Source of the DNA: Eledone cirrhosa
Taxonomy: Eukaryota
NCBI GenBank assembly: GCA_964016885.1
Contig: OZ024743.1
Coordinates: 56,172,001-56,236,000 of the forward strand
DNA length: 64,000 nucleotides
Direction: 5' to 3'
The position numbers and the translations under genes are program-made. The notes below the pieces were generated by a model that was given only the letters and a program-made list of their open reading frames with translations, ran no database searches and was not told the DNA's origin. Each line of letters starts with the position of its first letter. The first letter of the stretch is position 1. Of the stretch, positions 875-52,887 are shown one piece after another.

Positions 875-1144
875 CTTAAATGGAAAAAATGAAATTTCAT
901 TTCTCACTCTTAGTACGGCTGATACTTAAATATAAGTATGTATACGTGCATACATATATGTATACAGACGTACAGTAGTATGTATATACATACATACATG
1001 CATGCACACATATATATATATGTACGTATGGGTTTATTGAACACTTATTATAATGTTCGGTTTGTTTGTAAACAAACAGCCCGAATTAAGCCGTACAGTG
1101 TTCGGCAACCATCGTTGCCCTTTTGTTCAACACTGACAAAGGAA

Positions 1145-1185
1145 CGATGAACTAGTTTCTAGCTTATTAGCTGTCATCAGCACCG
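1145..1185 (-). ncRNA. Type I minimal hammerhead ribozyme (inverted copy of 1298-1338)
   Basis: Exact reverse complement of 1298-1338, inside a ~69-bp inverted repeat (1122-1190 / 1293-1361). Confidence 0.75.
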
Positions 1186-1297
1186 TATACCTTCCTGTCA
1201 ATCGATTGAACATTTGAAAGTATATACTTTCCTTATGCATATTAACGGCTGAGCAGCCTAATTTGCATATCGAGTGAGTTAGTAGGCCGGGCGTATA

Positions 1298-1338
1298 CGG
1301 TGCTGATGACAGCTAATAAGCTAGAAACTAGTTCATCG
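1298..1338 (+). ncRNA. Type I minimal hammerhead ribozyme
   Basis: CGGTG CTGATGA cAGCT-aata-AGCTa GAAA C-TA-G TT CATCG; stem I CGGTG/CATCG; palindromic stem III AACTAGTT. Confidence 0.8.
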
Positions 1339-1364
1339 TTCCTTTGTCAGTGTTGAACAAATAG

Positions 1365-28090: not shown

Positions 28091-28254
28091 TAAAATAACA
28101 GATTAAAGTTTAAGCAAAGAATCGCTGCTTTCACCCTTAACAAGGCCAGCAATTACTCCAGTGCATTACTGGTACTTTATTTTATCGACCCCGTAAATGA
28201 GTAAATTATAGGAATGTCGTGTCGTTTAATGCCGTTTTGCTTAAGAAATATGCC

Positions 28255-28435
28255 TCAGAATCATGACGAAATAAGAAACTATCTTGGTTGGAGGCATGTG
28301 TCTCCGCCAGAAGCAGTGTGGTGTCTCTCTGAATTTAAGCTTCATGTTAAATCACATACAGTGCAAAGACTAACTATACACCTGGATAACAAAGAGTTTA
28401 CATTCAAAGAGGTCATGCTCCGGTCGCGGTAGAAA
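28255..28435 (+). mobile_element. Helitron RepHel fragment
   Basis: DEIRNYLGWRHVSPPEAVWCLSEFKLHVKSHTVQRLTIHL matches the DEI..Y...RYVS..EA.WR...F.......V.RL..HL motif. Confidence 0.8.
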
Positions 28436-28581: not shown

Positions 28582-28617
<36 letters not shown>

Positions 28618-28685
28618 AAAGACGTAAAATAAGAAAATTTTTAAAAAAAGTTTTTTTTAAATTAACTTACTTACTTAAATTTTCA

Positions 28686-28765
28686 CTCCAACTAATTAGT
28701 TTCTGCAATGGGATAAAGACAGTTACGTAATGAACTGTTGAGAATTTCATTGCGTCATCAGGGAG
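28686..28765 (-). ncRNA. Type I hammerhead with extended stem II
   Basis: Minus strand: CTCC CTGATGA cGCAATG..ACAGTT-cattacgt-AACTGT..CATTGCa GAAA CTAATTAG TT GGAG. Confidence 0.85.
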
Positions 28766-29079
28766 GTCTATTCTCAGCCAAGTCTCCAGGCAATGCGCGG
28801 ACACTGGGGACTCATATAAAAATAATAATAATTCGGTAAATGGAACAGCTATCGGGGACTGGATTCCAGGCACTGAAAATTCTCACTGCCACTGGTCAAA
28901 TGGCCGATTCTAAAGAATCAATCGCGTGACACTGAGGCTAGTCGGTAGGAATGGGATGGTAAGATGTCATCTTACCATCCCATTCCTGCATTGAACCACC
29001 TAGGTACTATGACATAACCTGTGTATTTGCTGGCATTAGCGTACATCTGTGCGCTTATGTTAGTAGATATATTAAATTA

Positions 29080-29185
<106 letters not shown>

Positions 29186-34764: not shown

Positions 34765-37700
34765 CTATAGCCTGATGTAGAGTGAAGGCCCATTCACACG
34801 GGCCATTCTCGCCACTTTCACCCATCTTTCATAGAAACGGCTGGGGTGCAGCACCTCTCTCTCCATCCTGATCCTTCTTCCGAAATGATATCGGAAGAAA
34901 CGGACCAGTTGTTGGCCAGAGAGAAAGGTGCCTGACCTCAGTCCTTTCAGACGCGTCCACCATACAACCTCTTTCGCCATGGCTATTACGCACAGAAACA
35001 CCGCCTCTGCTTCATCTTTGAAGGGGGGAGGCGGCTTGATCATTACAATAGACTCGGTGGTCAACCGGATCGGTCCCACCCTTGACAGCAGTTGTTCGAC
35101 ATAGCCCCACAGATCGGCTACGCCCGAGCAGTGTACCAATGCGTGTGCAACGGTTTCCTCGTCGCACACGCATCTGGGACAGATCTTTTTGGCGGGGTCC
35201 CTACCCGGGCGCCCGTGTCTGTAGAGCCTTTCTCGAACGGGTAAAGCCCCTCGGTAGCACTGCCAGGCCAGGGACTTCTGGAAGTTGTCCATAGGTCCCG
35301 GGCTGAATGTCCTACCGAACAGGCTGGCCAGTTCGTCCTCCTCCATGTCTAGGGCTTCTCCGAGGGCGTCGTCGCACCTGCTGCGTACCAGCCCTCTATA
35401 GAATGTTGCGGTGGAGTCTCCACTGATAACCGGATCCGCCTGCCAGAGGGCGGTGAGCGCCTGGGCACACTCAGTGTGCCAGGCGCCCAGTTTTCTCGGT
35501 CTTTGCTTGACCCAGGATTGCAGCTCGGTGAGTGAGACGAGTCTGGGAAAGGTTCGCCTCACAAACGAGGCCCACACCGGTTGTCCGGTGAGGAATACGT
35601 AGAGGTGCCGTAGCCTTAATGCGTGTTTACGCATCATTAGCCACGGCATCCCCAGCCCCCCTTTCGAAGGGTGTTGACAGCAGATGGATCTCCTCACCAT
35701 AGGAGCCCGCCTCTTCCAAAGGAATTGGAAGAGCGCGCGCTCCATCTTGGTGAGGGTTTCCCTTGGGCAGGGCACTACGGTCAGGCGGTAGTAGATGACG
35801 GACGCTATGTAGGTGTTCGCCACCTCCGCCCGACCTTTCAGGGATAGTTTGCAACTGGCCCACTTCTGGGTCAGTGCAAACACCCTGTTCGTAACCTCCG
35901 CCCAGTTTTTCTCCACCTGGAGGTCCGGTCCGAACCAGACCCCGAGCAACTTCACCGGGCCCTCCGTCCAGCGTCCGACGACGCCATCGGAGGGCATCGG
36001 TCTGCCCCTCCACGTGCCGAGTTGCAAACCGATTGACTTGTCCCGGTTCAGCTTAGCCCCTGTGAACTTTTCGTACTCCTCCAGTAAGGTGCCGACCGCC
36101 TCGATTTCGGAGGCCGTCGACACCATTACTGTCACGTCATCGGCGTAGGCCGACACCGCTTTCCGCAATCCCGGTTCCAAAGGGATGCCCTGCAACAACT
36201 CCAACTTCCGCAGTAGTGGCTCGAGAGTCAACACATACAGAAGGGAGGAGAGAGGGCACCCCTGTCGGATGGACCGCGCGATTTTGAACGGCTCCGAGAG
36301 GTAGCCGTTCACCTTGACCCTAGAGCAGATGCGGCTGCTGTGCATAGCAGTGATCCAGCCCCTGAAAACGGGTCCGAAGCCTGCCGCCGCTAGCACCGCA
36401 TCCAGGTAACCATGGTCGACCCTATCGAACGCCTTAGATTGATCCAAGTTGATCAGAGCCCCACCAAAGCCGGGTTCGTTCCCAACCCTCTCTATGATGT
36501 ATCGCATGAGGTGGAGGTTGTCATGGATGGACCTGGACGGGATAGCGCATGTCTGCGCATCTCCCACCAGGTTGCCCACGACAAGCGCCAACCTCTTTGC
36601 TAGCACCTTGGCCAAAATCTGTAACTCTGTATTTAGCAGAGTTATGGGCCTGAAGTTACTTATTTCGTCCCCCTTGTTCTCGTCCTTCCTCACTAGCGTG
36701 ACTACGCCCTTGGTCACAGTACAGGGAATTCTCCCGTTCTGTTGCCAGTTGCAGTAGACCGCCTCGAGGAGATCGGGGAACAAGTCCGGCATAGCTAGAT
36801 ATAATTCGTAAGGAAGACCATCGAGACCCAGGGATTTGCGTTTGCCGCATTGGCTCAGCACGTCCTCTATCTCAGCGGCCGAAATCGGCTCCTCGCAGGA
36901 CTTCGCCTCCCTGTCCGAGAGGCGCGGCAGGCCGTCGAGGTATGGACCGAAGTCCACGTTCCCAACCGGCTCCCCGCCCCTCCCGAACAGTCGGGCAAAG
37001 TGCCTTTGAAAGGCCTCACACATCTGCTTAGGCTCAAGAATCGCCCGTCCATCCAGGTCTCGCAAAGACCGGATGGTGGATTTAGTTCCACTGTTGGCCT
37101 CTGTCACGCGGGCCCAGCTAACAGCTTTGGTCCCCTCGTTCCCTAGAGCACGTATTTTACTTCGGACAACGCAGCCTTCGTGCTTCGCGTCGAAAAACTG
37201 GCTCAAAGCCGTTCTCGACGCTAGCACTCTGGCCACGTCGCCGCTTCTAATTGCCTCTTCTACTCTATCTATTAGCTCCCTTTCCTTCCTATTCCTATCC
37301 GCAGCTAGAACCTTACTAAATTCTATCGAGACTACTCTAATCTCTCTCTTTAGAGATACCCACCACCTGCTGTTGACGATCGCTCCAGTCAACCGTTCCT
37401 TAACTAACGTACTAATCCGATTCCTGTAGGCTCTACTTGCCGGCAAGGACAAGTTGAGCTTCCAGTAACCGGGGCCCTGTCTATGAGTTCTGTCAAGGTT
37501 GACCATGCAGGTCACTAATTTGTGGTCTGAATAGCCAACCATGCGCATTTTTGGACAACTTAAAAAGTCCTTATCCTTAATTCTAACTAAGAACCTATCT
37601 AGGTACGACCTAGATGATCCGCTACGATTTGCCCAAGTCCAGGTTGGCGCAGTCGGAAAATCTAGTCGATATCTATCGGCCAGGTCAAATCGACCGATTA

Positions 37701-38202
37701 ACCCTTTGAGGCTATTACACCCCTCTCTATCGGGGCAGGCCCCTACGTAGTCCCAGCGTGCATCTAGGATACCATTCCAGTCCCCCACTAATAGCAAGGA
37801 GCGGGACGTCCCCAGAAAAGTCTCCAGACGATGGAAGAAGTCCGGCCGCATTGACCCGAAAGGGCCGTAGGCGGCTACCAACCTAAACGCTCCGCCTTTA
37901 CCACTGCCAAGGTCCAGAACCACTAGTCGACCCTCCGGGTCCAAATGTACCATCTGTGTTGCGAGACCCAGATGTTTTTGCAGCAGAACGACAACTCCAC
38001 CCCCACCTCCGGGCTGACAGAGAGATGCGTGCATCTCAAAGTCATCAAAGGTGGGGGCCAGCTGTCGCACGTTGCTGATCCGGGCCTCGCAAATAACCAT
38101 CACATCTATACGTTGTGACCTGAGGTCATTTAGAAGCATTGCTTGCTTCCAAGTTGAGCCCAGGCCACGCGCATTTAAACAGCCTACTCTTAGCATAGCC
38201 AT
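34765..38202 (-). CDS. Tx1-like ORF2: APE endonuclease + reverse transcriptase + C-terminal Cys/His motif (~1145 aa from ATG)
   Basis: CLNARGL, GDWN, YLDRFL, SDHK, GPGYWKLN, NFRPITLLN, LDQSKAFDRVDH, IRQGCPLS, AYADDV, CPRC..EETVAHALVHC. Confidence 0.93.
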   Translation of the reverse strand: MAMLRVGCLNARGLGSTWKQAMLLNDLRSQRIDVMVICEARISNVRQLAPTFDDFEMHASLCQPGGGGGVVVLLQKHLGLATQMVHLDPEGRLVVLDLGSGKGGAFRLVAAYGPFGSMRPDFFHRLETFLGTSRSLLLVGDWNGILDARWDYVGACPDREGCNSLKGLIGRFDLADRYRLDFPTAPTWTWANRSGSSRSYLDRFLVRIKDKDFLSCPKMRMVGYSDHKLVTCMVNLDRTHRQGPGYWKLNLSLPASRAYRNRISTLVKERLTGAIVNSRWWVSLKREIRVVSIEFSKVLAADRNRKERELIDRVEEAIRSGDVARVLASRTALSQFFDAKHEGCVVRSKIRALGNEGTKAVSWARVTEANSGTKSTIRSLRDLDGRAILEPKQMCEAFQRHFARLFGRGGEPVGNVDFGPYLDGLPRLSDREAKSCEEPISAAEIEDVLSQCGKRKSLGLDGLPYELYLAMPDLFPDLLEAVYCNWQQNGRIPCTVTKGVVTLVRKDENKGDEISNFRPITLLNTELQILAKVLAKRLALVVGNLVGDAQTCAIPSRSIHDNLHLMRYIIERVGNEPGFGGALINLDQSKAFDRVDHGYLDAVLAAAGFGPVFRGWITAMHSSRICSRVKVNGYLSEPFKIARSIRQGCPLSSLLYVLTLEPLLRKLELLQGIPLEPGLRKAVSAYADDVTVMVSTASEIEAVGTLLEEYEKFTGAKLNRDKSIGLQLGTWRGRPMPSDGVVGRWTEGPVKLLGVWFGPDLQVEKNWAEVTNRVFALTQKWASCKLSLKGRAEVANTYIASVIYYRLTVVPCPRETLTKMERALFQFLWKRRAPMVRRSICCQHPSKGGLGMPWLMMRKHALRLRHLYVFLTGQPVWASFVRRTFPRLVSLTELQSWVKQRPRKLGAWHTECAQALTALWQADPVISGDSTATFYRGLVRSRCDDALGEALDMEEDELASLFGRTFSPGPMDNFQKSLAWQCYRGALPVRERLYRHGRPGRDPAKKICPRCVCDEETVAHALVHCSGVADLWGYVEQLLSRVGPIRLTTESIVMIKPPPPFKDEAEAVFLCVIAMAKEVVWWTRLKGLRSGTFLSGQQLVRFFRYHFGRRIRMEREVLHPSRFYERWVKVARMARVNGPSLYIRL

Positions 38203-38226
38203 GTTGGTGGTGAAGAGAAAAGGCAC

Positions 38227-39519
38227 TTACCTCTCTGCGTCCCGGGTATCGGGCTGCACAATTTCCATTAGGGTGGGGGATGGGTTGTTGGGTGGGGTGG
38301 TGGTTTGTGGAAGTGTGGGGGCATCAGTGTGTTGTGTGGTTGGGGAGCTTGGAGTTGTGTGGGTGTTTGGGGAGGGGGTGGGATAGTTTTTTAGGAGGAC
38401 GCGGTTAATGGGCCCGACGCAGGGGGGACCCACGTCCTCTTTAAAATTGTTTTTTAAAGTTTTATAGGTGTCCTGTGGGGCCTTAATCATTTTGAGGTGG
38501 GGGAAATCCCCTGCCTGGGTGAAGTTAGGCCCTTGTGTTTTTATTAGATTGTTGTTGTACACAATGTTTAACAGTTTTTTGTTTCTTGTGTTTATGTATG
38601 TGTATGCATGTTTTTGTTTTTGTGTGGTGTTTTTTGTTTGCTGTTGTGAGCTCTTTTGTGTTGGTGTCAGTGTTATGTTTTGGGGAGGGGTTTTTTTCAT
38701 TTGTGTGTCTGAGGTGTGTTTTCTTTTTTTTCTTTTGATTGTGTGGAAGTGCTCCTCCTCGTCTGACGACGAACTAGGGTCATCTTCCGCGTTGGAGGGG
38801 AGGGGTATATTTTCGGGTTGTGTTTGCGGTACGGGTGTTTTGGAAATTGTTTTTGTTTTTTGAGTGGAGGGGATGGGTTGGACATTGTTTTGTTTTGGTT
38901 TGAGCTGTGGTGGTTGTTTTTGTAGTGGTAGTTGTGGTGATTGTGTTGGTTGTGCAGTTGTTGGTGGTGTAGGCAGGATTGGGGTTTTCTTATTAAGTTG
39001 GGGACAGACAGCCCTCAGGTGACCTCTGGTTCCGCAGAGGTAACACGAGGGCCGTCTACCCTCAACGGTAATGTTGATGAAGGTTAGATCATCCAGTATG
39101 ACGCGTTCAGGGATCTGGGCGATCCTTTCGGGCCTCATTTGAACTACAAGTTCGAGGCTCGTTCCACTGAACGCGTCACCCGATGCCTTTCCCATGGACA
39201 CCAGCATGTCATCCTCCAGGTCCAGAAAACCTGTCAAAACCCACCATATGTCCATAATCGGCAGGATGGTGTGGATTTTTATTTTTTGTGTTCTTCTACC
39301 CATGTACGTAGGGTAGAAGGTGTATGCGGTGGATGTGATTGGTTTGATGGACAGTTTCACTGCTGTGTCCCTGTCCTTCATGAGAATGGATAGACTCCCG
39401 TAGAGTCTATCCTTCTGAATGAAGGTGATGTCCTTCATGACGTCTTTTAAAACCAGCTCTATCTCGCTCTGTGATGGTTGAGCTGGTTTTTTACTTTTGT
39501 TCGAGATTGTCCTAAACAT
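38227..39519 (-). CDS. Tx1-like ORF1, nucleic-acid-binding protein with CCHC knuckle (~430 aa from first ATG)
   Basis: CYLCGTRGHLRAVC knuckle, Pro/Gln/Thr-rich linker, KRKKRK; the ORF-track N-terminus (LSIY)n is flanking microsatellite. Confidence 0.85.
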   Translation of the reverse strand: MFRTISNKSKKPAQPSQSEIELVLKDVMKDITFIQKDRLYGSLSILMKDRDTAVKLSIKPITSTAYTFYPTYMGRRTQKIKIHTILPIMDIWWVLTGFLDLEDDMLVSMGKASGDAFSGTSLELVVQMRPERIAQIPERVILDDLTFINITVEGRRPSCYLCGTRGHLRAVCPQLNKKTPILPTPPTTAQPTQSPQLPLQKQPPQLKPKQNNVQPIPSTQKTKTISKTPVPQTQPENIPLPSNAEDDPSSSSDEEEHFHTIKRKKRKHTSDTQMKKTPPQNITLTPTQKSSQQQTKNTTQKQKHAYTYINTRNKKLLNIVYNNNLIKTQGPNFTQAGDFPHLKMIKAPQDTYKTLKNNFKEDVGPPCVGPINRVLLKNYPTPSPNTHTTPSSPTTQHTDAPTLPQTTTPPNNPSPTLMEIVQPDTRDAER

Positions 39520-39529
39520 GACCGTGTTT

Positions 39530-39609
<80 letters not shown>

Positions 39610-40104
39610 GGGGGGGAACAAGGAGGCAAAAGAAGCAAAAATAAGAAAAAGGTAAAACTTTTCTTTCCTATTGGAATATCTTGTTTATGTTTTGTAGATC
39701 CTTGACAATCTATTGCACCTCCAATCTCAGTAGCTTTTTTTAATTTTTTATAGACCAGCTTTAAAATGTTCTCTCTGTCTCAGACTGGTAGGTTTTACAT
39801 TAGAATTTAGATAGGAACCCTTTAAATAGGTAGTTTAGTTTCATAGAATCATGGGTGGTTTGAGGAGGTTTGCTATCAAAAAAGCATGATATACATTTGA
39901 TGCTTTTACTTACCACCATTTAAAAGGGAGCAGACAAAAAGTCAAACAACAAAAAACCAGAATGCTAATACCGGAAAAAAAGAAAGGCTGTTAACAACTC
40001 TATTTGTCGAAGTGTTACTCGATTTTAAAGAGAAAATATTATCAACTCGTGAGCAGAATTACTTGGCAATATTTTTGATTGATGATCGAAAATTGAATCA
40101 ATTT

Positions 40105-49298: not shown

Positions 49299-50846
49299 TC
49301 TATACTATAAAGCTGACGGCCGTATGTAGGTATCAAACATCCGCCAAACGGCTGGACCAAACAGCACCAAATTTGCACCATAGATGTAACTTTTTCCAAG
49401 TAAAAAAGTGAGGGAATTTTTGTCTACGGAATTTTGTTAAAAGATTAAAGACATTCGGTGAATTGGCAGTATGGGTAGAGGGTCGGACGCCATGCTTTCT
49501 AGCATAGTTACGTCTCTTTACAGTCTGAGTTCAAATCCCGCCGAGGTTAACTTTGCCTTTCATCCTTACGGGGTCGATAAAATAAAGTACCAGTAATGTA
49601 CTGGGTAATTGCTGGCCTTGTGCCTAAAGTAGAAACAATTATTTAAATATTCACTTCTTTAAAATTTCAGATGTCAACACTTCCTGTTATACGTCATTCC
49701 TCACTTTTTCTTATGATGTCTCACAACATTCCCCTCTTTTTCTTAGTCTTTCTTTTTAGATAGATACATAGCTATAACGTAGCGCCCTTATAAAATGTCT
49801 CTGTATGTCTGACTGTCTGCATTAGATAACGTTTTTCGAAATATTTACGTCTGCGTTCACAGACTGATTTTTTTAGTTACGGGTGAAGCAGCGATTCTTT
49901 GCTTAAACTTTAATGTTATTTTAATATATATATTCGTGTACAGATATTTTTGCATACACAAAAACAAAAACCTATTTATTTCACGAAAGCTCATTGTTAC
50001 TGTTCGAGGTTAGAGGACCACTCTTTCCAAGATCTGAGAACCATCAATGGCCATCAATGTTCCACTTACCGTTTGGCTTGCCAGATGCGTGGTATGTTAC
50101 ACTATGACAGCCATTGGCACCTCACCCTGCAAGAAGCAGCAACTGCTAAAGTCCCTTCTCAGCTGCGAAAACTTTTCGCCGACCCTCTCGCAATGTGGAA
50201 CAACCACCGCGAAAGTCTAGCTGAGGACATCCCCCACCGCACACGCAGACACAATCCGAACGTAACATACGATGTCGTTTTCAATGAGGCGCTCATTTGT
50301 CTTGGAAACAGTGTCCTGGAGATTGGTGGTTGGCCTCTAAGTCACTACAGCTTACCTGCTTCTGACAGGAGTGTCCAGAGGTCAAGGTCTACAGAGCTTC
50401 TTCGTGAGACGAGCTACGAAATCAGTGATTCTCCCATGGTCAATTGTATGTAGGATGCTCTCGGGTGAGCTCGCCAAACAATCTCTTCATCTTTTCTCCG
50501 GAGGGCCGAACAAAACATATTGTATACTCTGAGGCTCTAACAATGTAATTTAAATATTTTCTGTTACTTGGAATTTCCATTATGGTTCTACAAATTATTG
50601 TTTGTTAAAAAAGTTGTTCTCTGTTCAGCGTTTATTGTTGTAACTATCAATTTTCTTTAATGTACTGGCTACTGAACTGGGGAATCCTAAACACTATTCA
50701 AACCCAACATCAGAGCACGTAACCCCCCCCCCTCGTTGACCTGAGAGGGCGTGCGGTATCTTTGCACTGGAGTGGAGGGAGATTCCTGAAAATATAAAAT
50801 GCCGGTATACCTAGCCGAACGCCAGCCGAACGGGCCAGTGAGCTAT
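49299..50846 (+). mobile_element. Internally deleted Helitron containing a SINE and other inserts
   Basis: 5' A|TCTATACTATAAA; RepHel remnants SFQDLRTING..TYRLACQMRGML..W..TLQEAA..PSQLRKLF and FSHGQLYVGCSRV; 3' hairpin GCCaG-ccgaa-CGGGC followed by CTA. Confidence 0.8.
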
Positions 50847-52833: not shown

Positions 52834-52887
52834 CTTTACTTGCCCTGATGAGTCCTTAATAGGACGAAACATTGTTGGCTAATAAAG
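52834..52887 (+). ncRNA. Type I minimal hammerhead ribozyme
   Basis: GCC CTGATGA GTCC-ttaata-GGAC GAAA C-att-G TT GGC; distal CTTTA/TAAAG pairing over AATAAA. Confidence 0.85.

Follow-up and report, generated by a model that had tools for sequence, protein, structure and literature searches.

The locus analysed here raises the question of whether a hammerhead-like motif in Eledone cirrhosa DNA is a real ribozyme, what kind of element carries it and what the C·A opposition at the base of its stem II means. The motif lies on the minus strand at positions 28765-28686 of a 64,000-nt stretch (the window, to which all positions below refer) from a microsatellite-rich genome of 3.0 Gb. Based on sequence comparisons, we conclude that it is a real Penelope-type hammerhead, predicted to be self-cutting, in a retrozyme-like non-autonomous element. 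We further consider it probable that this type I core, housed in a 553-bp non-coding repeat, cuts after GUU as predicted, with the dimer as its likely form and a pseudoknot as a likely brace.

A structure-based scan recognises a type I hammerhead with three helices at 28765-28686 (-), and all of its elements lie where the first-pass annotation had placed them. Stem I is open and consists of 4 bp. Its 5' strand CUCC (28762-28765), assigned from sequence and covariation, is followed by the core residues C3-A9, CUGAUGA (28755-28761, from the scan), and by an unpaired C (28754), which corresponds to the extra base of Penelope-type motifs, had previously been labelled C10.1 and is replaced by A in one subfamily. 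The proximal helix of stem II comprises 6 bp supported by covariation, with the 5' strand GCAAUG (28748-28753), the first base of which is the canonical G, and the 3' strand CAUUGC (28705-28710). Between these strands, stem II passes through an internal loop into a distal hairpin (28719-28738, from sequence), in which ACAGUU (28738-28733) pairs with AACUGU (28724-28719). The long stem II and the ACAGTT/AACTGT hairpin of the earlier description are thereby borne out on the minus strand, together with the core. As read from alignments, the sequence of the distal hairpin varies in sister subfamilies while its pairing is retained, and one subfamily has a UUCG loop. An unpaired A (28704, formerly A11.1), placed by family counts and a tree, precedes a block at 28690-28703 that was delimited by sequence, folding and the scan and contains GAAA (28703-28700), the palindromic stem III (ACUAAUUAGU) and U17; within it, CUAAUUAG occupies 28699-28692 and is followed by UU (28691-28690). 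The motif ends with the 3' strand of stem I, GGAG (28686-28689, from sequence), and the cut is predicted from the sequence between 28690 and 28689, after GUU. CUGANGA, GAAA with an A15.1-U16.1 pair and an NUH site, which define a type I hammerhead, are thus all present.

The motif is not a chance occurrence: the full type I descriptor has three matches in the 64-kb window, as compared to none in each of 100 Markov resamples. Covariation is present in stems I and II. Among 22 diverse copies, which were selected to have C...A, the second pair of stem II occurs as U-A, C-G, A-U and G-C and the fifth as G-C and U-A; the covariation score was 0.261 versus 0.105 for shuffled alignments, and none of 500 shuffles scored as high. 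When 125 copies are placed on a tree by 220 nt of sequence lying outside the ribozyme, stem II shows five same-branch double changes. Stem III is invariant and therefore carries no covariation signal. The core, stem III and the cut triplet are identical across subfamilies that are only 69-79% identical, in a sample selected on those motifs. The Rfam hammerhead families did not match the local sequence at E <= 10, and among the best 150 of 483 matches in a whole-window Rfam search there were only microsatellite-driven miRNA-type matches. The motif had also been counted as the third long-stem-II hammerhead; this part of the description could not be confirmed, as a descriptor scan of the window found no other with an intact core.

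In several respects the motif resembles the metazoan Penelope-like hammerheads described by Cervera and de la Pena (2014; PMC4209133), namely in being type I, in its short stem I and long stem II, in an extra H followed by G10.1-C11.1, in a palindromic stem III that implies dimers, and in the GUU site, which is common among them. The reported Hydra motif has the stem III CUAUUAG, which is close to CUAAUUAG of the window motif. It differs from the motifs of that study in that stem II here, 51 nt long altogether, continues beyond an internal loop into a second hairpin, and from Penelope-like hammerheads in general in its predicted pseudoknot, as Penelope-type hammerheads are said to lack tertiary loop-loop contacts (PMC7761336).

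The host element is, judged from its genomic copies, a non-coding tandem repeat of retrozyme-like organisation with a unit of 553 bp (511-571 bp), numbered here from the predicted cut site. A 72-nt core has 1,039 genomic matches at <=3 mismatches versus none for the control, and the wider superfamily that shares the stem III comprises about 9,150 cores genome-wide. Units of 511-571 bp follow each other head to tail, each with one type I hammerhead, in one case 13 in a row, and 23 representative monomers are 69-79% identical (minimum and mean). Contigs of a second organism hold near-identical DNA. Non-coding tandem units with one type I hammerhead each, thousands of copies and a proposed mobilisation by Penelope-like elements are also features of the animal non-LTR retrozymes (PMC7229834; preprint of Li, Clavereau and Pollet, bioRxiv 10.64898/2026.07.22.740005). 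The unit is longer than the 150-450 bp first described for retrozymes and falls within the 51-972 bp of the preprint. In contrast to the canonical loop 1-loop 2 type of ribozyme reported for animal retrozymes, the ribozyme here is of the Penelope type; its stem II differs from a 4-bp helix closed by a short loop, and a pseudoknot is predicted instead of the loop 1-loop 2 motif, the canonical tertiary form of which is missing from mussel retrozymes. Animal retrozymes are expressed in the form of monomer RNA, both linear and circular.

The palindrome in stem III bears on how the ribozyme might fold. The 12-nt palindrome that had been described as stem III does exist (28701-28690), but it includes A14 and U17, and stem III proper has 10 bp; if all 12 bp formed, A14 could pair with U17 and the cut site would be hidden. 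Only 8 nt are free sequence. In a monomer, stem III is reduced to 3 bp with a 4-nt loop; a dimer forms all 10 bp. The best predicted fold of a lone monomer is not the hammerhead (-14.7 versus -11.9 kcal/mol; z = -1.12); in it the core pairs with stem III, and it would be inactive. Two copies are predicted to cofold into a strand-swapped dimer (-39.0), and a dimer forced into the active type reaches -35.8 versus -23.8 for two monomers. In these models, folding favours the dimer and the palindromic stem III acts in its favour, as in Penelope-type hammerheads; in a natural 651-nt dimer, however, the cross-copy stem III helix has a near-zero probability in the folding model. In the axolotl, the active motif Amex2 likewise carries a mismatch at its stem II base and shows better cleavage when dimeric (PMC7229834).

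Since the predicted monomer fold is inactive, one might ask whether the hammerhead is nearly inactive on its own, either because it needs a Penelope protein or because it has been kept as a protein-binding structure. The Anolis Poseidon hammerhead is reported to cleave only with the protein of its element and to be dispensable for insertion in vitro (PMC11167929), and low activity has been described for Penelope hammerheads (PMC4209133). As for retrozymes, eight of nine Xenopus dimers gave no cleavage in vitro (bioRxiv 10.64898/2026.07.22.740005). What speaks against this reading for the element studied here is the constancy of the core, stem III and cut triplet across subfamilies, in the sample selected on these motifs, and, as a hint at most, a slight enrichment of 5' ends of copies just past the predicted cut: 27 of 189 fall within the first 27 nt 3' of the site, a count that is inflated by an A/T hairpin; at least eight of these ends seem to be artefacts of the alignment, and position 1 itself has none. 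We think that either form of this reading is somewhat unlikely, and we favour a ribozyme predicted to cut its own RNA, likely as a dimer.

A further structural element, which had been overlooked in the first-pass annotation, might help such a ribozyme to fold. Four nucleotides upstream of stem I lies UGAGAAU (28770-28776, minus strand), which, read from 28776 to 28770, could pair with AUUCUCA (28745-28739), a part of the internal loop that interrupts stem II. The two strands were assigned from their complementarity and, for the upstream strand, from compensatory change. Because MAFFT misaligned the internal loop, the pairs were parsed by script. In 204 distinct copies, the central pairing is GAGAA/UUCUC in 131 and GAAAA/UUUUC in 26, a perfect 5-bp core in 157 copies; 34 have mismatches and 13 lack the anchor. 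A helix of at least 5 bp is found in 166 of 204 copies, as compared to 8-23 for flanks shifted upstream. Complementarity alone is weak evidence, since shuffled flanks give a 5-bp match 20% of the time.

The pattern of change is more informative. An upstream GAAAA is accompanied by UUUUC in the loop in 90 of 100 copies among the matches listed (560 in total), and both changes map to one branch of 15 tips, the sister copies of which keep GAGAA/UUCUC. The ten core positions show three clade-level changes where 13 would be expected (P = 0.014), and the probability of a same-branch pair given so few changes is P = 0.008; as the compensated copy was first noticed by eye and tested afterwards, both P values are partly post hoc. 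The third clade-level change is uncompensated and occurs in a group of five tips from a five-copy tandem array. Compensatory support amounts to one clean event, GAAAA/UUUUC, and a weaker second one, and the contigs of the second organism contribute no further pseudoknot variants. Pairs flanking the core are often mismatched, and the pairing as such is kept in every sampled subfamily. Most copies of a distant family with CCGCGG and GUA, which differs in stems I, II and III, have UGAGAAA/UUUCUCA, and the layout of their internal loop is the same. Another family with a long stem II, whose stem III is CCAUGG, has two genomic matches, too few for this comparison. The sequences predict a conserved Watson-Crick helix of at least 4 bp that joins the stem I and stem II sides and shows compensatory change, as in pseudoknot-stabilised hammerheads. 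We conclude that a pseudoknot, formed by the 5' flank of stem I with the loop inside stem II, likely braces the hammerhead.

Contacts of this general kind have been described before. In the pseudoknot hammerheads of Perreault et al. (2011; PMC3088659), the sides of stem I and stem II likewise make a Watson-Crick contact in place of the loop-loop contact, and pseudoknots were reported in about 40% of representatives, in all three types and including human C10. Stem I/II pseudoknots have also been reported for HDV-like type III motifs from toad and termite (PMC7936874). In the published examples considered, the partner is either the terminal loop of stem II or a loop inside stem I (PMC3088659, PMC7936874), while here an internal loop of a long stem II would pair with the 5' tail that extends from an open stem I, and the motif belongs to an animal repeat of high copy number. 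The arrangement is also distinct from the PK hammerhead of PMC11300833, in which the pseudoknot replaces stem II. Among the papers listed in literature searches, no title or abstract opening describes this pseudoknot or this repeat family, and figures or supplements of earlier papers could bear on their novelty.

The covariation between the two strands would also fit a pairing that is real but acts as a folding trap or off-switch. In that case, the GAGAA/UUCUC helix would form first during transcription and enclose the core strand, cleavage would be delayed, and multimers or circles would survive for retrotransposition. The 7-bp helix alone reaches -4.6 kcal/mol as a hairpin round the core, and most genomic copies span an uncut site, both of which would be in keeping with such a switch. 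We nevertheless regard it as unlikely, as the spacers place the two strands at matching distances from the core, 7-9 nt along stem I and 8-11 nt along stem II, which is what a brace needs, and as stem I-II pseudoknots speed up cleavage in tested hammerheads (PMC3088659).

If the helix does act as a brace, one might speculate that a high-copy animal lineage of Penelope-type hammerheads has rebuilt a contact of this kind. The C·A step would then set the register, the enzyme strand would be pre-folded and the dimer would be fast without a protein. We put this forward as a tentative reading; were it correct, the contact would have been missing from earlier assays in which constructs were cut at stem I. 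The predicted pseudoknot matters more than the combination of C·A and GUU and bears on the question of why Penelope-type hammerheads cleave poorly in vitro. The family offers natural variants in this respect, with about 9,000 copies in many subfamilies that include A·A, U-A and compensated pseudoknot forms.

The C·A opposition had been put forward as part of a recurrent variant together with GUU. It is indeed conserved and recurrent: of about 9,150 superfamily cores, 8,670 have C...A, so that most homologs do not have a Watson-Crick pair at 10.1-11.1. Another 36 have C with a different base, 14 of them G as counted by eye, and 448 have another first base. Among the 100 of these in the matches listed, we counted by eye 67 with A, 30 with T and three with G, and the 3' A was kept in 99. 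The A rows represent one subfamily (A·A), and the T rows lie scattered, the pattern expected from CpG decay. The pairing just inside the mismatch is the canonical G-C in 198 of 204 copies. The published Penelope consensus reads CUGANGAH G...C GAAA with a palindromic stem III, with an extra H after A9 and then G10.1-C11.1 (PMC4209133 and its Fig. S3). Here, too, C, A or U follows A9 and G10.1-C11.1 comes next; the C therefore is the known extra base of Penelope hammerheads. By analogy with the rotifer Penelope-like hammerhead, the 3' A is a second extra base: the Athena motif of Adineta vaga has an extra A on both sides, Hydra and D. willistoni have U...U (all PMC4209133 Fig. S3), and the Cotesia row of the same study, matched to its species from the order in the text, appears to read AGAAA. 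No row of that figure has C...A, unlike the window motif. A natural U·U at the base of stem II has also been described elsewhere (PMC3088659, section 8), among others in Amex2 (PMC7229834, section 15). GUU occurs in 15 of the 56 rows of PMC4209133 Fig. S3, counted by eye. Penelope-type hammerheads were already known to be mismatched at the stem II base and to have GUU sites, so that on its own the combination of C·A with GUU holds little interest. Hammerhead structures contain a sheared G12·A9 pair. The C·A would be a tolerated 1x1 mismatch between this pair and the canonical G-C pair.

It could still be argued that C10.1·A11.1 with GUU is a distinct variant that has been selected to tune activity, given its frequency in the superfamily, its presence in several unrelated families (2,863 short-stem matches versus 61 in the control) and the fact that U-A is one CpG transition away and yet no sampled subfamily has fixed a Watson-Crick pair; the single fixed change led to A·A. 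In the family tree of 125 copies, the C has a single change, to A, and the A has none; however, 90 of 201 background columns (45%) never change either, and the conservation of the two bases is therefore no more than background. C·A is also not tied to GUU. The CCACUGG and CCGCGG families combine it with GUA and a CAAUUG family combines it with GUC, and in a loose genome-wide pattern other hammerhead families have A·A, U-A, A-U and G-C at this position. The C·A and GUU shared with the motif noted at 1298 are present in the hammerhead at 1303 (+), but that family alternates between C·A/GUU and U·U/GUA, each in 11 of 23 copies. Together with the published U·U (PMC3088659, PMC7229834) and A...A (PMC4209133 Fig. 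S3) mismatches, this makes a selected variant quite unlikely. The sequence comparisons instead indicate that the C·A mismatch, although real and recurrent, represents one of the states that a relaxed position can take and does not form a unit with GUU.

The insertion pattern of the copies gives some indication of how the repeat might move. The 3' ends fall into two bands that hold 145 of 167, with 64 at unit positions 61-80 and 81 at 171-210; 118 of 167 run into (TA)n (108) or (TC)n (10). Target-site duplication is a trait of animal retrozymes; the ends of the copies here lie in these simple repeats. The 5' ends are spread and often inverted. Fourteen 5' ends that had been assigned to position 1, the cut site, were rejected as artefacts of subfamily mismatch. 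The window copy follows the general pattern, being truncated, partly inverted and inserted in (TA)n. Its sense part (28613-28969, -) covers unit positions 274-553 and then 1-77 and reaches (TA)n at the first of the two preferred 3' ends, and an inverted segment (28984-29090, +) covers unit positions 93-199 and ends in (TA)n at the second. This copy has a single hammerhead and probably represents a dead insertion. Penelope-like insertions are described as truncated, as partly tandem, as having inverted 5' copies and as biased towards (TA)n (PMC8557442), and for an Anolis element reverse transcription has been reported to start at two internal sites (PMC11167929). Most insertions span an intact cut site, which implies that many templates were uncut or circular.

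We propose the following model. Tandem arrays would be transcribed, and neighbouring hammerheads would pair through their palindromic stem III and swap stem I strands. Cleavage would free monomers of about 550 nt, which may circularise. A Penelope-like reverse transcriptase/endonuclease acting in trans would nick (TA)n, and reverse transcription would start within the unit at position 77 and at about 199. Two such internal starts could give rise to truncated, partial-tandem and inverted insertions.

Unlike in the hammerheads of PMC4209133, no RT-EN frame (RT plus GIY-YIG) is joined to the unit in the examined loci, which comprise about 200 of about 9,000 copies, and an autonomous element that shares the unit or its hammerhead was not found in the loci searched. 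RT or GIY-YIG matches in these loci occur only in separate neighbouring insertions, which have their own hammerheads or none. That the repeat is instead made up of truncated fragments of a pseudo-LTR belonging to an autonomous Penelope-like element would agree with the truncation, inversion and (TA)n targeting and with the relationship of Xenopus retrozymes to pLTRs (bioRxiv 10.64898/2026.07.22.740005), but is very unlikely, as the units join head to tail without a coding insert, up to 13 in a row, and as the RT and GIY-YIG matches in the roughly 200 of 9,000 copies lie in separate insertions. Frames near the loci L284, L278 and L290 were considered as an autonomous partner and rejected for being separate insertions. 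A young Neptune-like Penelope family (L141, L144, L145) has intact 796-aa RT plus GIY-YIG frames and a microsatellite-filled 3' UTR; no canonical hammerhead was detected in scans of these three loci, and the family was rejected as a partner because it has no sequence in common with the unit.

Some further features of the repeat are worth recording. The 13-hammerhead array (L176, G000:C1:152491500-152501000) belongs to the A·A subfamily; its copies are decaying and include the uncompensated pseudoknot change. At unit positions of about 310-325, the palindrome TCACGTGA, followed by TTGATTC, is nearly invariant across monomers that are 69-79% identical; in the window it lies at about 28920-28935 with one change. 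TCACGTGA is possibly an internal promoter or a protein site. A 5'-splice-site-like GTAAGT is located 3' of stem I in the superfamily and in the distant CCGCGG family (window 28669-28674, -), and the 5' ends of several copies begin at or beside it. Introns occur in Penelope pLTRs.

Hammerheads are abundant in this genome beyond the family described here. A loose pattern has 181,278 matches genome-wide versus 13,598 for a reversed control, some of them counted twice, from which we estimate that the 3 Gb genome likely holds well over 100,000 hammerheads, as many as the much larger axolotl genome with its reported 126,247 (PMC7229834). Low-copy families in which stem II is very long and interrupted and GAAA is preceded by an extra A (L279-L282, L276-L278 and L066/L193) have the stem III sequences CAAUUG, CCAUGG and CCUUUGG. 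In the window, the motif noted at 1298 is one arm of an inverted pair (1180 on the minus and 1303 on the plus strand; window 1124-1360) and belongs to another, very abundant repeat, two same-strand copies of which are spaced by 434 bp. Hammerhead-like motifs of other families, some of them degenerate, lie at 52845 (+), 53120 (-), 24580 (-), 27252 (-), 8371 (-) and 51836 (+). Frames at 28232-28429 and 49914-50450 (+), for which a Pfam search found no match, presumably resemble fragments of a Helitron Rep/helicase. A LINE at 34768-39684 (-) contains a 1,153-aa frame with endonuclease, RT and zf-RVT domains, preceded by a 485-aa frame that has a weak zinc knuckle.
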